A stretch of DNA of 64,000 bases. Origin: a virus. Both the position numbers and the translations under genes were made by a program. Of the stretch, positions 3,243-10,085 are shown piece after piece; position 1 is the stretch's first letter, and each line of letters begins with the position of its first letter. The stretch lies in IMG/VR virus record IMGVR_UViG_3300042337_000070, positions 43,943 through 107,942 of that record; one strand, 5' to 3'. The notes under the pieces are model-generated. The model made no database searches. It saw only the letters and a list, made by a program, of their open reading frames with translations, and was not told where the DNA came from.

Positions 3243-3512
3243 TCACTTTACTCCATCTTTTAGTTGAATGATTGCAGAAGGATTGATGCAAAGAAATCCA
3301 TCACCATGTCCTTTCACATAGTCGAAAGGTTCGACAGCATATCCACCAGCATCAATGCACGATTCTTTGAATGCTTTACGATGGGCCATCCATTCGTTTG
3401 AATCTGTGATAGCCCAGTAAAGAAACACTATCACAAAAAGTATAGTGCTGACAATGTAAGCGGCAAATGAGACTTCCGCCCACAGAATGTTTCCCTCATA
3501 ATCTCTAAACAT
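3243..3512 (-). CDS. Hypothetical single-TM protein
   Basis: Hydrophobic N-terminal helix, C..AGG...C pair; TGATG coupling to gp45. Confidence 0.6.
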   Translation of the reverse strand: MFRDYEGNILWAEVSFAAYIVSTILFVIVFLYWAITDSNEWMAHRKAFKESCIDAGGYAVEPFDYVKGHGDGFLCINPSAIIQLKDGVK

Positions 3513-5666: not shown

Positions 5667-5894
5667 TTATCCGTCAGCAAGGCGATAGAATGCGGTGCGC
5701 TTACCCTTTACATTGCGATAATTAGTGTAGATCGTATAACCCCACTCACGAAGGTCGTAAACTCGCTTTGCAACATTATCACGAGGAACACGGGCCATCG
5801 AAGCAATCTTGTCGGCGGTAACGCCGGCGCCAGTGTTATAACGGGCGAGAACAGTTTCAATCTTCTCAATCTGAGACTTGCGAGGTGTAGCCAT
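5667..5894 (-). CDS. Small winged-helix DNA/RNA-binding protein (75 aa)
   Basis: VTADKIA...NVAKRVYDLREWGYTI...FYRL; GGAGA RBS before ATG 5894. Confidence 0.7.
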   Translation of the reverse strand: MATPRKSQIEKIETVLARYNTGAGVTADKIASMARVPRDNVAKRVYDLREWGYTIYTNYRNVKGKRTAFYRLADG

Positions 5895-5919
5895 TATATA
5901 ATTCTCCATTCGTGTTTTA

Positions 5920-5987
5920 TTGATGCTGCTGGTCGTGAAAGGAAAGGCCCGTGTATAACCAGCAGCATCAAAGTTATTATACACGGG
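5920..5987 (-). ncRNA. Candidate pseudoknot/switch RNA with anti-RBS loop
   Basis: Interleaved perfect IRs: 5977-5987/5948-5958 (11 bp) and 5958-5971/5920-5933 (14 bp); loop CCUUUCCUUUCACG. Confidence 0.6.
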
Positions 5988-6015
5988 TATTCATTTAGAC
6001 TTTGGACCAATCGAT

Positions 6016-6059
6016 TAGAGGAAAGATTGGATACCCAAACTTATCGAGTATCCAATCTT
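6016..6059 (-). terminator. Hairpin after cobS-like gene (terminator-like)
   Basis: 12-bp IR 6023-6034/6048-6059 followed by pyrimidine tail on minus strand. Confidence 0.5.
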
Positions 6060-6093
6060 CACCGTTGATCCTTTTGACTGTATAATCTTTATT

Positions 6094-7353
6094 TCAGAAA
6101 GCGATCTCTTCTCCAACAACCTTCTGCTCTTCGGTAGCAGGAGCGACAGTCGGATCGATTGTTTCGTCAACCTTCTTATACAGTTCCATAAAAGCGTTCT
6201 TAGTATCGATATCAAAGCGATTCAGACACAGCTCAATCGACTTGGCACGATTCTGATTGAAAATGGCATATGCCTCGCAGATATGAACCAGACGACGAGT
6301 GGAGATGATTTCGGACAAAGCACCTTCATAAAAGGACTTGCGAATAACATCAGCCCAGGTCACCAGCTTATCAACAAAGTCACCAGCATCAATACCAGAA
6401 GCACCGAGAACATTCTTTAGAATCTTAGTCTCGGTCTTGACCGGCGGATACTCCTGCTCCATTGTAATAGAGAAACGCTCCAGAAAGGCTTCGTTCATAA
6501 CATTGGTGCCGATGAAGCGACCGTCGTCAGAACCCTTACCCTTAGTGTTAGCGGTCGCAATGACATTGAAACCAGACTCAGGAGTAACCAGTCGATTGAT
6601 CTTTTTGAGAAACACCGACTTGCCCTCAAGGACAGGCTGCAAACACATCAGCTTGTTAGAACCGAGGTCAACCTCGTCAAGCAGAAGAATTGCACCACGC
6701 TGCATAGCGATAATAACAGGACCGTCCTGCCAGACAGTATGACCATCAACAAGGCGGAAACCACCGATCAAATCGTCTTCGTCAGTCTCAATAGTAACAT
6801 TGACACGAACACACTCACGCTTTTCCGCAGCGCAAACCTGTTCAATCATCATCGTCTTACCGTTACCAGAAAGACCAGTGATATAAGCCGGATAAAACTT
6901 CTTGGACTTGATAATAGCACGAACGTCGGCAAAGTTACCGAACGGAACGTAGCCAGAAGCCTTAGAAGGAACCAGCGACACTTCACTTGAAGTAGAAGTG
7001 GAAGGAGCAGACATAGCAACGGTCGGAGCCATAGCCACTACGCTATCGACAACAGGAATATCCGACTGAATATTCGCAGGAGCGACCTTATTGGTAGCAG
7101 TCTTCTTAGGAGCCTTGACCTTAGTGACAGCGGGTGCCATAGCAACATTAACGGCAGCACCATGCTCGGGAATAGCATACAGACCACGACCCACACGGCG
7201 GGAAGCGTCGTTCAAGAACCAGTGAGGCCAGGACAAATTATATTTTTCGACAACACTCTTGATTTGGGCACGGGACACTTCACGGACAGCACCAAATTCA
7301 AAACGCACCTTGTCAAGGAACTCGGTGCGGTTAACGGAAGAAGACTTAGCCAT
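6094..7353 (-). CDS. cobS: CobS-like/MoxR AAA+ ATPase with N-terminal extension
   Basis: GLSGNGKT, LLLDEVD, ATANTKGKG, NEAFLERF, ISTRRL; typical of T4-like phage CobS. Confidence 0.88.
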   Translation of the reverse strand: MAKSSSVNRTEFLDKVRFEFGAVREVSRAQIKSVVEKYNLSWPHWFLNDASRRVGRGLYAIPEHGAAVNVAMAPAVTKVKAPKKTATNKVAPANIQSDIPVVDSVVAMAPTVAMSAPSTSTSSEVSLVPSKASGYVPFGNFADVRAIIKSKKFYPAYITGLSGNGKTMMIEQVCAAEKRECVRVNVTIETDEDDLIGGFRLVDGHTVWQDGPVIIAMQRGAILLLDEVDLGSNKLMCLQPVLEGKSVFLKKINRLVTPESGFNVIATANTKGKGSDDGRFIGTNVMNEAFLERFSITMEQEYPPVKTETKILKNVLGASGIDAGDFVDKLVTWADVIRKSFYEGALSEIISTRRLVHICEAYAIFNQNRAKSIELCLNRFDIDTKNAFMELYKKVDETIDPTVAPATEEQKVVGEEIAF

Positions 7354-7389
7354 ACGATGTTTTCCTTTCACGATTTCAAATTATGACAT

Positions 7390-7427
7390 ATTATAGCAGA
7401 GGAAACGGGGGTTGTCAAGACCCCCGT
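7390..7427 (-). promoter_or_regulatory. Perfect sigma70 promoter whose -35 sits in the loop of a terminator-like hairpin
   Basis: TTGACA (7413-7418)-17-TATAAT (7390-7395); IR acgggggt 7405-7412 / acccccgt 7420-7427. Confidence 0.75.
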
Positions 7428-7442
7428 AACCTATTGTTTTTT

Positions 7443-9674
7443 CTACGCTACCTTCTTTGCTTTCCCAGTGACGTGGTCAATGAAATTGCGAAGAAGGACA
7501 CGGTTGACAGCCTTTCTAGCGGCGAACTTGGAGAACGCTTTGGCCATATGCTTGGTAGACTTGTTGGTATCGATTTCCAGATTATTATCTTCGAATCTAA
7601 GAGCCCTAGAATCGATCACATAATAATCATCGTATCCTTCACTCTTGACAGGATAGAACTTGTTCTCCTTCCAGAACTTGGAGACCTTCTGGAGATAATC
7701 ATAGTTGCCTTCAACACCAAAACGACGGGTGAAAGTTCCCCAAGATTCAGCGAAAAGAAAGAAACCGATTAGATTACAGTTCGTCTTCTCCTTGAGCAAA
7801 CGAAGATACTGGACAGTGTTGGTAGCACGATTAGACGGACCCCAACCACGAGGATCGATCTCATAAGTTTTACCAGTCTCCTTGTCATTGTAATAAAACT
7901 GCTTTTTACGAAGCGAATTTTTCGTCGTATCATGCACAAGACCAGAACAAACATTCGACTCACCGTCAGTGAGAATAATGGTATTGACAACCTCCAGCTT
8001 ATACTTTGCACGGAAATCATTGATGATCTTAGGTGCAACATAAATTGCCTCATTCAAAGGCGTGCCAGAGAGACCTTCACAGTTGAGACGATGACCATTA
8101 CCCATAGCCCAGAGAAAAGCCATAGCGTCATTCAATTCAGTAAGATTCATCTTAGATGAAAGGAACTGACGCATAGTGAGATAACCAAATGCCATGCTAT
8201 TTTCGACACTGCTGTGATCCCACGGAGACTTAGGATCATAATCATCGTCGGAATCCTTGAACGCATACACTTCAAACGGCACTTGAATCTGCTTGCAGAA
8301 GAGAACCAGAGTAAAGAGCTGCGACATGGTGTGTCGAAGATTATAGTCCATTGATCCTGACCAATCAAGAAACATGACAAAGCCATGGTTCTTACCCTCA
8401 GGGATAACAGACAGACGACGGAAGATATCATCGCTGTGCTTATAAGCATGGAGTTTGTTGGTATCGATCATACCAGTCTTAGCAGTTTGAATGCGAGAAT
8501 AAATCTCGGCACTCTTACGCTGCTCAAACTCCTTGACGAGGAAAGAGATAGTCTCCTTTTCTTTCTGACGCCATTCGGTAAACTCACGACGGGCGTTTTC
8601 GAAAACCTCAACAGTCAGGCTGCGACTATAACGAGGATTAACATTCGTTATTTCTTTACGCCAGTCATTCAGGACTCTTTTATAATCATGGACATGCTTG
8701 GCATAATTGAACTGAGGCATATTGACATAAACATAATCAACATTGGCATTCTGCACCAGTTCTTCACGCTTTTCTTCCCAAGCACGATCGGTCTGTGACT
8801 CGGGAACATTGTCCGTTACCTTACCCTGGGCACCAGCGCCAGAGCCAGACGAATTACCATTTGAACCAAGATCACCCTGACCACGGGTTACACCACCCTC
8901 CGAATCGTCGTCGTTACCCTCGCCTTCACCCTCATCGGAGTCGGACTTGGAACCTTCATTAGAATCGAAATCATCGGCAGAGTCGCCATCGCTATCCCAA
9001 TCAAAACCATCATCACCTTCACCCTCCTCAGAATCACCGACACCAATATCGATATGCATATCATTTTCAATCTGAGACTTGCAGAAACGATAAATCTGTT
9101 CGACAACATCGACAGTTTCATCGAACTTTTCAAGATTCTCAACCTTTTTGAGAAAGGACCGCTCTTCGGGAGTAAACTCAATAGATAGATTGACATTACC
9201 GCCCTTGAAATAGATATTCAAGCGGTCGATGAAATTCATCGAATTGATATCACGACCCTTCGTGCCGAAAAAGTCACGTTCAATCAATTCCTGATAACCA
9301 AGAAGATAGTTTTTACGAAGACCAGGATAACGGCGCTTCTGGCGCTTATCGATACGGGCATCTTCGATAACATTCAAAAAGCCAGCGACGGTTCGCATAA
9401 GACGAGAATCAACATCGTCACCAAAGATACGCTTCGCAATACCCTGATAAGCAGTCTTATACTCTTCGGCAGAAGGAGTATCGATAGCATGACCAGTCTC
9501 ATGACCGATAAGCAAATGCTCCAGATCAGTAGAGATGTTCTGCCATACGGGAAGCATGAGAACACGATTCTTTAGGTCGAACATAGCGGTCTTGATACCA
9601 GACTGGTGCTGAACCGTAATGTTTTCAGTAGCAAGCAGTTTAGCAAGCAGAGAATTAGAGTTTACCGTTTGCAT
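7443..9674 (-). CDS. CobT-like protein: N-terminal HExxH metallopeptidase-like domain, acidic linker, VWA domain
   Basis: HETGH, NVIEDARI, D/E/G-rich linker, MIDAS DWSGSM...GTPL...LTDGE; adjacent to CobS-like ATPase. Confidence 0.85.
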   Translation of the reverse strand: MQTVNSNSLLAKLLATENITVQHQSGIKTAMFDLKNRVLMLPVWQNISTDLEHLLIGHETGHAIDTPSAEEYKTAYQGIAKRIFGDDVDSRLMRTVAGFLNVIEDARIDKRQKRRYPGLRKNYLLGYQELIERDFFGTKGRDINSMNFIDRLNIYFKGGNVNLSIEFTPEERSFLKKVENLEKFDETVDVVEQIYRFCKSQIENDMHIDIGVGDSEEGEGDDGFDWDSDGDSADDFDSNEGSKSDSDEGEGEGNDDDSEGGVTRGQGDLGSNGNSSGSGAGAQGKVTDNVPESQTDRAWEEKREELVQNANVDYVYVNMPQFNYAKHVHDYKRVLNDWRKEITNVNPRYSRSLTVEVFENARREFTEWRQKEKETISFLVKEFEQRKSAEIYSRIQTAKTGMIDTNKLHAYKHSDDIFRRLSVIPEGKNHGFVMFLDWSGSMDYNLRHTMSQLFTLVLFCKQIQVPFEVYAFKDSDDDYDPKSPWDHSSVENSMAFGYLTMRQFLSSKMNLTELNDAMAFLWAMGNGHRLNCEGLSGTPLNEAIYVAPKIINDFRAKYKLEVVNTIILTDGESNVCSGLVHDTTKNSLRKKQFYYNDKETGKTYEIDPRGWGPSNRATNTVQYLRLLKEKTNCNLIGFFLFAESWGTFTRRFGVEGNYDYLQKVSKFWKENKFYPVKSEGYDDYYVIDSRALRFEDNNLEIDTNKSTKHMAKAFSKFAARKAVNRVLLRNFIDHVTGKAKKVA

Positions 9675-9705
9675 ATGTTTACCTTTGTTTCACGAGTATG
9701 TAAAG

Positions 9706-9734
9706 ATTATAAGGGAAAGATTTAGGAATTGCAA
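9706..9734 (-). promoter_or_regulatory. sigma70-type promoter for CobT-like gene
   Basis: TTGCAA-17-TATAAT. Confidence 0.65.
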
Positions 9735-9736
9735 GC

Positions 9737-9764
9737 AAAAAAAGAGGGGTAGTTAACCCCTCTT
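9737..9764 (-). terminator. Rho-independent terminator
   Basis: AAGAGGGGT-5-ACCCCTCTT followed by a U run on minus strand. Confidence 0.8.
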
Positions 9765-9776
9765 GAAATCAAGAAG

Positions 9777-10019
9777 TTACTGTTTAGTAGCAAGGAGAGA
9801 CTTGTTCTTTTCAAGAAAAGACTTAATCTTTTCCGCTTCCGAGAGAATCTGTTCCCACTGGGAACCATAAAGAGTCACAGGAAAGCGACCCATACCATAG
9901 AGAGATACAGCACCCTTCTGGGAGACCTTAAGAGTAAGAGGCTTCTTGGACTTGGCCTTAGTGACTTCGGCCTCAAGCTCAGCAATACGGGCGAGGAGGG
10001 CAGCATTCGTATCCGACAT
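9777..10019 (-). CDS. Small protein, coiled-coil plus beta-rich basic domain
   Basis: LKVSQKGAVSLYGMGRFPVTLY..QW; strong AAGGA RBS, own terminator. Confidence 0.7.
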   Translation of the reverse strand: MSDTNAALLARIAELEAEVTKAKSKKPLTLKVSQKGAVSLYGMGRFPVTLYGSQWEQILSEAEKIKSFLEKNKSLLATKQ

Positions 10020-10085
10020 TTGAGTTCCTTTCGTTTCAGCGACTATGGAAAGAGTATAGCGCAGGTGGAACGAAATGTCTTTGAC

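Follow-up and report, generated by a model that had tools for sequence, protein, structure and literature searches.

A conserved double-stem RNA element overlapping a promoter at the cobS-wHTH junction of T4-like phages, with a loop complementary to early-gene ribosome-binding sites

What role is played by two interleaved inverted repeats that lie between a cobS-like ATPase gene and a small winged-helix (wHTH) gene in an uncultured freshwater T4-like phage? The sequence analysed here, referred to as the window, is a stretch of 64,000 nucleotides (nt) forming part of the 107,942-base IMG/VR virus record IMGVR_UViG_3300042337_000070, which has an estimated completeness of ~65%. A first-pass annotation had proposed that the repeats encode a free-standing antisense RNA, whose loop silences three upstream early genes by pairing with their ribosome-binding sites (RBS). 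We find instead that the element is part of the cobS-wHTH junction and of the 5' untranslated region (UTR) of the wHTH gene, its first arm holding the -10 box of the wHTH promoter. Our preferred reading, to which we would give slightly less than an even chance, is that the element is a composite terminator/promoter/5'-UTR module resembling the promoter-early stem-loops (PeSLs) of T4-type phages, and that it carries an anti-RBS loop.

The element occupies positions 5987-5920 of the minus strand, with exactly the sequence first annotated, and comprises two perfect stems, S1 (11 base pairs, bp) and S2 (14 bp), which are interleaved. In the direction of the genes, the 5' arm of S1 (S1a, CCCGTGTATAA, 5977-5987) is followed by the short loop L1 (TAACT, 5976-5972), the 5' arm of S2 (S2a, TTGATGCTGCTGGT, 5958-5971) and the 3' arm of S1 (S1b, TTATACACGGG, 5948-5958), which sits within the S2 loop and has T5958 in common with S2a. 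Next come the pyrimidine-rich 'anti-leader' linker L3 (CCTTTCCTTTCACG at 5947-5934 plus A, thus 5933-5947), which is also the tail 3' of S1, and the 3' arm of S2 (S2b, ACCAGCAGCATCAA, 5920-5933). The GGAG Shine-Dalgarno (SD) sequence of the wHTH gene (5907-5904) lies ~13 nt past S2. Compared with shuffled sequences the intergenic RNA has a fold z-score of -6.3, none of 200 shuffles being equally good. The predicted energies are about -26 kcal/mol for S2 and -15 kcal/mol for S1, and the minimum-free-energy fold is S2 according to RNAfold, which cannot model pseudoknots; in the predicted folds the S2 loop of 24-25 nt is open and L3 is unpaired. The S1, S2 and L3 sequences are present in one copy per genome, and in phage loci L3 is always found 5' of the same wHTH gene.

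Are these stems maintained, and if so as RNA or as DNA? Relatives with the same element were found via homologues of the wHTH protein (65-95% identity), and the wider family by using the CobT-like protein encoded upstream of cobS as bait, which yielded 80 further loci (37-76% identity). Covariation was assessed in 22 distinct sequences and linker forms were counted over ~100 loci; searching viral contigs for an S1-core pattern gave mainly chance AT-rich palindromes and, once filtered, few new variants. Across the 22 relatives 99.2% of stem cells are paired (99.6% for the S1 helix alone), and any register shift cuts pairing to 28-45%. Both stems covary. Compensatory changes affect five of the 12 S2 pairs, comprising A-U/G-C, C-G/U-A via U-G, G-C/C-G, U-A/C-G and U-A/A-U/C-G exchanges, and one of the 11 S1 pairs (C-G to U-A), with G-U at two further S1 pairs. 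One-sided changes are mostly G-U on the wHTH-sense strand, which points to an RNA transcribed in the direction of the gene. The two helices, each backed by covariation, follow one another in a-b-a'-b' order and so have the topology of an H-type pseudoknot. The linker is almost invariant while adjacent unpaired positions and flanks diverge, with only seven forms when the neighbouring base is counted, and L3 is by this comparison under strong purifying selection. A real, conserved RNA-level structure at a terminator/promoter junction is thus well supported by the alignments.

How is this structure placed with respect to transcription? The last five bases of S1a together with the following T form TATAAT (5981-5976, minus strand), and because many relatives carry a perfect TTGACA exactly 17 nt 5' of it (loci L002, L006, L012, L025, L032-L035, L055, L063 and L068) we take this to be the -10 box of the wHTH promoter. 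The predicted transcription start lies at 5968-5969, 6-7 nt past the -10 box, where an invariant G makes up the base of S2, and we infer that wHTH-promoter transcripts begin there. Since S1a overlaps the -10 box, S1 should be formable only in RNA started further upstream, namely cobS read-through RNA. In several relatives the cobS stop codon is ~14-15 nt before S1 with no hairpin between, and S1 with its pyrimidine tail is therefore likely to be the 3' hairpin or attenuator of cobS. The junction thus has the parts by which PeSLs are defined (PMC2839356), a sigma70-type promoter with an overlapping stem-loop and then an SD and ATG; it is not a dispersed, repeated shuffling cassette as PeSLs are.

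The same design is found in distant clades, in which the wHTH protein is 44-57% identical and the junction sequences are unrelated. There a promoter is followed 0-2 nt past the -10 box by a 12-15 bp hairpin, frequently with a U-tract behind it, and a segment of 6-9 nt in the 3' part of the hairpin loop (X) pairs with a segment (X') ~10 nt 3' of the hairpin and ~10 nt before the SD. At least seven differing sequence pairs document covariation of X with X' (e.g. GUCAC/GUGAC, GCCAC/GUGGC, GGCAC/GUGCC, GAACCG/CGGUUC, AACCGC/GCGGUU and AGACUG/CAGUCU). S1 corresponds to the hairpin of these clades and S2 to an enlarged X:X' helix, and it is thus the interleaved topology that the junction conserves. 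The promoter overlap and this family-wide topology are new here. A sister clade (L094, L110) has its own S1, ACCCTGCTATAAT / ATTATAGCAGGGT, over the -10 box, a 6-bp S2 and a linker with no match to the leaders. Three other sister-clade loci, L093 (~6880-6955), L095 (6575-6646) and L155 (~3425-3500), contain a tRNA-like insert of ~75 nt between S1b and S2b, exactly at the linker position. In the insert a 7-bp acceptor stem precedes UCCA, the T-arm loop is UUCGACU and UUCCCAU forms the loop of a long, anticodon-like stem; ARAGORN reported the L095 copy only, as tRNA-??? with an abnormal anticodon, and with the Rfam tRNA model the inserts score below the gathering score.

One explanation of such a topology is that the element folds as a static H-type pseudoknot, acting as a protein operator (for instance in autoregulation by the wHTH protein, in the manner of gp32) or as a nuclease-resistant block. 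It would account for interleaving with covariation in both helices throughout the family, the helix and loop sizes of the distant clades fit a classical H-type fold, and T4 gene 32 provides a precedent (PMC3014915). We nevertheless consider it quite improbable: L1, at 4-6 nt in this clade, must span an S2 helix of 12-14 bp, which is borderline sterically; transcripts from the embedded promoter do not contain S1a; the wHTH SD is in neither helix; and the winged helix is not a known binder of single-stranded RNA or pseudoknots. The first-pass annotation had also suggested that the structure is coupled to wHTH translation, an idea we have dropped as nothing ties either helix to the wHTH RBS.

With what, then, might the invariant linker pair? 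Within the window the 13-mer TCGTGAAAGGAAA occurs exactly twice, at 5933-5945 on the plus strand and at 7361-7373 on the minus strand. The latter site is the cobS leader motif, SD included, to which L3 is perfectly complementary over 13 nt, as had been noted in the first reading of the window. No non-self site in the whole 107.9-kb record forms a better duplex with the loop than this leader does (-19.1 kcal/mol, with the runner-up at -16.9), and it ranks first among 114 roughly called leaders, which average -7.2 with a standard deviation of 2.8. The first-pass annotation counted three targets, and all three leaders exist as written; however, complementarity is strong for cobS alone. The leader of the CobT-like gene (TCGTGAAACAAAGG, 9682-9695, minus strand) is degenerate in this genome and ranks fifth at -12.9 kcal/mol, while that of a gene encoding an 80-amino-acid (aa) protein (TCGCTGAAACGAAAGG, ~10027-10042, minus strand) is a weak partner at -14.6 kcal/mol. 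Thus only cobS clearly exceeds other SD-rich leaders as a partner of the loop in this genome. The element does present a segment, predicted to be accessible, that is complementary to a target RBS beyond chance, as expected of an antisense regulator. The third-ranking leader belongs to a HAD-phosphatase-like early gene of 158 aa with a DIDNT motif, located outside the window (L257 279-755, G000:C1:7678-8154), where the leader ATCGAGAAAGGAAAC, which differs from the cobS leader motif by a single mismatch, comes after TTGACA-17-TATAAT.

In relatives both cobS and the CobT-like gene possess a consensus promoter, after which comes a leader of the type GAAAA-TCGTGAAAGGAA, and in most relatives the CobT-like leader reads TCGTGAAAGGA, a perfect 11-nt match to L3 that extends to 12-13 nt in many; the present genome is an exception to this form. 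The cobS leader of relatives retains GTGAAAGGAA, the two preceding bases being variable. For each of 13 distinct relatives that carry the element, the longest match of the loop to the genome's own cobS or CobT-like leader is 9-14 nt, and at least 11 nt in 12 of them, compared to mostly 4-7 nt in clades that do not have the L3 linker. Complementarity to the cobS leader, the CobT-like leader or both is kept in every relative with a readable leader, which bears out the first annotators' pairing of the loop with the AAA (cobS) and VWA (CobT-like) genes. In two complete relatives (G001 and G002) a 12-mer with at most one mismatch is found at the cobS or CobT-like leader, at the leader of a UvsY-like early gene and in the element, as well as at one site away from any start codon. 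In three further clades (L117, L124 and L157) a hairpin loop GGUCACUU complements, by 8-10 nt, the segment AAGUGACC located between the SD and AUG of cobS; from the sequences this appears to be an independent second solution. Among variants of the loop, the only one to change its core (L027, C to U) retains pairing through G-U. The UvsY-like gene, which encodes 148 aa (L039 ~1440-1520; G002:C1:21318), has TTGACT-17-TATAAT with TCGTGAAAGGAA beginning just 2 nt later, and the motif there would thus lie partly upstream of the transcription start.

The distribution of TCGTGAAAGGAA could also be explained at the DNA level, as an alternative in the first-pass annotation had suggested: the motif would be a protein-binding site just 3' of several early promoters, inverted 3' of the wHTH promoter, with the S1 arms as symmetric operator half-sites around the start, and the winged-helix protein would repress its own gene together with early genes. 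The confidently modelled fold of that protein is akin to DNA-binding repressors, and the S1 arms are conserved in sequence and change symmetrically in L032-L035, whose protein is the most diverged; in the relative just described, moreover, the motif may be partly untranscribed. Yet S2 covaries freely, which is a signature of RNA, and asymmetric changes are mostly sense-strand G-U rather than random mismatches. The half-sites are 29-30 bp apart, with 1-bp variation, and in distant clades X is spaced from X' by a variable 22-28 bp. The motif is rare, with 2-4 sites per complete genome, and its coincidence with the SD in three or more genes points to RNA. On the strength of the S2 covariation, G-U bias, variable spacing and SD coincidence we regard the DNA-level explanation as improbable.

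It is plausible from the sequence comparisons, at slightly less than even odds, that the invariant linker regulates cobS and the CobT-like gene by pairing with their RBS. Several observations weigh against it, or against the module of which it would be part. By its nature a pyrimidine tail can pair with purine-rich SDs, so that any specificity must come from the CACGA/TCGTG bases and from the invariance of the linker. In cobS leaders the initial two bases (the TC of TCGTG) are free to vary, against a loop that stays fixed. The covariation between loop and leaders envisaged at first annotation did not emerge: none of the variants L027, L104 and L106 shows a clear compensatory change, the G to U change in L106 gaining 1 nt with cobS and losing 2 nt with the CobT-like leader, a mixed outcome, and the CACG to CAUC change in L104 losing pairing. 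The sister clade of L094 and L110 keeps the leader family despite its non-complementary linker, and pairing over 13 bp within a closed loop is topologically limited. S1 is GC-rich at its base but has an 18-nt loop and the tail CCUUUCCUUUC, and is not a canonical terminator on either account; a terminator scan did not call it. The -35 of the wHTH promoter is poor in this genome and in some relatives, and TGTAAT or TATAGT replaces TATAAT in a few.

Some of these points are what would be expected if the element were simply a PeSL-type terminator/promoter cassette and 5' stabiliser, with complementarity to leaders that has no regulatory consequence. S1 would attenuate cobS read-through, S2 would protect the wHTH mRNA and the linker would be kept as a terminator tail, as a ribosomal-protein-S1 or standby site, or as a pseudoknot linker. 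PeSLs are an established kind of element (PMC2839356), pyrimidine-rich tails occur 3' of helix 1 in most clades, and this explanation has no difficulty with the lack of loop-leader covariation, with a sister clade that retains the leaders without an anti-leader linker, or with the modest CobT-like and 80-aa matches in this genome. It does not readily explain why a tail that is free to vary in other clades is here near-invariant over 14-15 nt, the non-pyrimidine CACGA included, nor why a match of 12-14 nt that ranks first genome-wide is kept in relatives with only ~50% identity in the CobT-like protein; by a rough estimate the chance of the extra specific bases is < 1e-2. We therefore think a cassette with a functionless loop rather unlikely, though it deserves serious consideration.

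Under our preferred reading, of a module with an anti-RBS loop, the junction would operate as follows. S1 would form only in RNA entering from cobS and, with its pyrimidine tail, would most likely attenuate that transcript or cap its 3' end, while transcripts from the wHTH promoter, starting within the S1 loop and without its 5' arm, would escape S1. S2, as a hairpin of 12-14 bp at the very 5' end of the wHTH mRNA (~-26 kcal/mol), would stabilise the message and display in its loop of 24-25 nt the near-invariant pyrimidine stretch of 14-15 nt, exactly complementary to the common leader TCGTGAAAGGAA(A), found at cobS and/or the CobT-like gene, and, in a relative, to at least one further early-gene leader. 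The wHTH mRNA could present the loop to these leaders in trans, or cobS read-through RNA could do so in cis, and by covering the SD the loop would limit early-gene translation as transcription proceeds. More tentatively, we suggest a protein-free, mRNA-borne riboregulator, in which one hairpin, at once the 5' end of an early mRNA and the 3' end of the mRNA before it, times or limits translation of cobS, the CobT-like gene and perhaps a few others. The hairpin would then be a modular display scaffold, a notion prompted by the tRNA-like insert that the sister clade has at the same position of the loop.

The genes around the junction are arranged on the minus strand in the order DNA methylase-like, 80-aa gene, CobT-like (743 aa), cobS-like AAA_5/CbbQ ATPase, 75-aa winged-helix protein, phrog_1574 protein, dNMP kinase and gp45 clamp, and this order recurs in most of the ~100 metagenomic relatives retrieved. 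With its promoter the cobS-like gene spans 6094-7418 (minus strand, ATG at 7353), the promoter consisting of TTGACA at 7418-7413 and TATAAT at 7395-7390 with a spacer of 17, a match at 12 of 12 consensus positions. The CobT-like and 80-aa genes, also on the minus strand, are preceded by TTGCAA-17-TATAAT and AAGACA-17-TATACT respectively, and all three promoters are as originally annotated. The first two are themselves hairpin-plus-promoter composites. At cobS (7390-7440) an upstream hairpin, ACGGGGGT/ACCCCCGT, holds the -35 TTGACA in its loop, and at the CobT-like gene (9706-9770) a canonical terminator, AAGAGGGGT..ACCCCTCTT with a T-run, abuts the -35; the layout is retained in relatives with different stem sequences. 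Between the cobS stop codon and the element this genome alone has an extra, terminator-like hairpin (AAGATTGGATAC...GTATCCAATCTT then TCCTCT, 6023-6059, minus strand). Elsewhere in the window CTAAATA(G/A)-like sequences recur ~10-25 nt 5' of the AAAGGAG ribosome-binding sites of probable late genes, for example at about 45550, 33420, 30880 and 27080, and may represent the late-promoter consensus of the phage.

Several other candidate features of the junction were considered and rejected. Pairing of L3 in cis with the wHTH SD is predicted at -10.8 kcal/mol, no better than with an unrelated leader (gp45), and upstream G-to-A variants in L032-L034 are uncompensated. A small plus-strand open reading frame of 15 codons (GTG at ~5951) behind an SD-like sequence shifts in frame and length among relatives, as judged by eye. 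The TATAAT that overlies the wHTH start codon might belong to an antisense promoter on the plus strand, but no usable -35 goes with it, and the G-U variants point to the sense strand. Inverted duplication of the entire promoter-leader cassette was discounted as the likeness to the cobS leader is confined to the 13-mer.

The wHTH gene itself, with its GGAG SD, occupies 5667-5907 (minus strand, ATG at 5894, stop included). Extension of its product from an upstream in-frame ATG (MENYIM...) was rejected, given an in-frame stop in L012 and an out-of-frame ATG in distant clades. An AlphaFold2 model of the protein (pLDDT 86) is a generic winged helix akin to Stf76 and to ArsR- and MarR-type DNA binders; searches of Pfam gave only a sub-threshold match to HTH_39, PHROGs only a phrog of unknown function and a PDB sequence search no significant match. 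In one relative (L002 1862-2050) the wHTH homologue has a premature stop, leaving 62 of 75 codons, with the upstream element intact, and in L008 the same element precedes an intact wHTH gene. AUGGAG, that is AU plus the GGAG SD (5904-5908 in the window), precedes the wHTH start in nearly every clade examined, including the most distant; GGAG in T4 early SDs is the cleavage motif of RegB (PMC3014915).

The element is not described in the literature searched, and a search with Rfam covariance models gave chance-level matches only (E >= 0.078, far under gathering scores). It adds a covariation-supported RNA family, absent from Rfam and attached to a single gene junction in considerably more than a hundred loci of uncultured, mostly freshwater T4-like phages, whose architecture has been retained through several sequence replacements. 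Known post-transcriptional control in T4-type phages relies on the proteins RegA, RegB, gp32 and gp43 and on cis hairpins, and a review of the subject lists no antisense or mRNA-mRNA regulator while inviting candidates from related genomes (PMC3014915). If the riboregulator reading is true, these phages would have their first described case of translational control by an RNA-RNA circuit, and a functional anti-RBS loop would make it a compact, testable case of one mRNA tuning its neighbours. Even if the loop is not functional, the embedded promoter and interleaved helices show how adjacent early transcription units can be insulated.

The closest known elements are the PeSL cassettes of T4-type phages (Arbiol et al. 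2010, PMC2839356; Comeau et al. 2014, PMC4122927), in which stem-loops overlapping or just 3' of the -10 box have been described (PMC2839356). As in those cassettes, an intergenic strong sigma70-type early promoter is combined here with a stem-loop that overlaps or follows the -10 box, an SD lies at the 3' end, and the stem-loop would attenuate upstream transcription, attenuation being in our case a prediction; the cobS and CobT-like promoters share the hairpin-plus-promoter arrangement. In contrast to PeSLs, which are dispersed repeats driving shuffling, the present element is fixed to one gene junction and also has a linker of invariant sequence and another helix, interleaved with the first and covarying. 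The leader hairpins of T4 e, soc, 49 and I-TevI (PMC3014915) similarly enclose a promoter, such that transcripts from the internal promoter do not contain the 5' arm and long transcripts form the helix. In T4, however, that helix hides the gene's own SD or AUG, whereas the wHTH SD is in neither stem and no translational switch of the gene itself is therefore evident. The leader pseudoknot of gene 32 in T4, T2 and RB69 (PMC3014915), to which the element was likened at first annotation, shares its topology and its position in the 5' leader of a T4-type early/middle gene, but the analogy goes no further than topology. That pseudoknot is small, is situated ~67 nt before the start codon and seeds the binding of a single-stranded nucleic-acid-binding protein; the present element has stems of 11 and 12-14 bp with an embedded promoter, the gene product is a winged-helix protein and no A+U-rich cooperative binding track was seen.

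The proposed anti-RBS loop has parallels outside T4-type phages. In the IS10 RNA-OUT/RNA-IN system a loop pairs with the 5' end of its target. Anti-SD pairing by mRNA-borne segments is known between the 3'UTR and 5'UTR of Staphylococcus aureus icaR (PMC3868564) and of Bacillus subtilis hbs (PMC5737220), and the 5'UTR of Listeria hly pairs with prsA2 mRNA (PMC8722363). As in these systems, an untranslated mRNA segment that is pyrimidine-rich and anti-SD-like has its complement in the SD region of its own message or of a different one, and the targets are near a free 5' end. The present case differs in belonging to a phage known from its sequence alone, in placing the anti-SD within the loop of a 5'-terminal hairpin that is at the same time the tail of an upstream hairpin, and in having a target motif common to two or three early genes.

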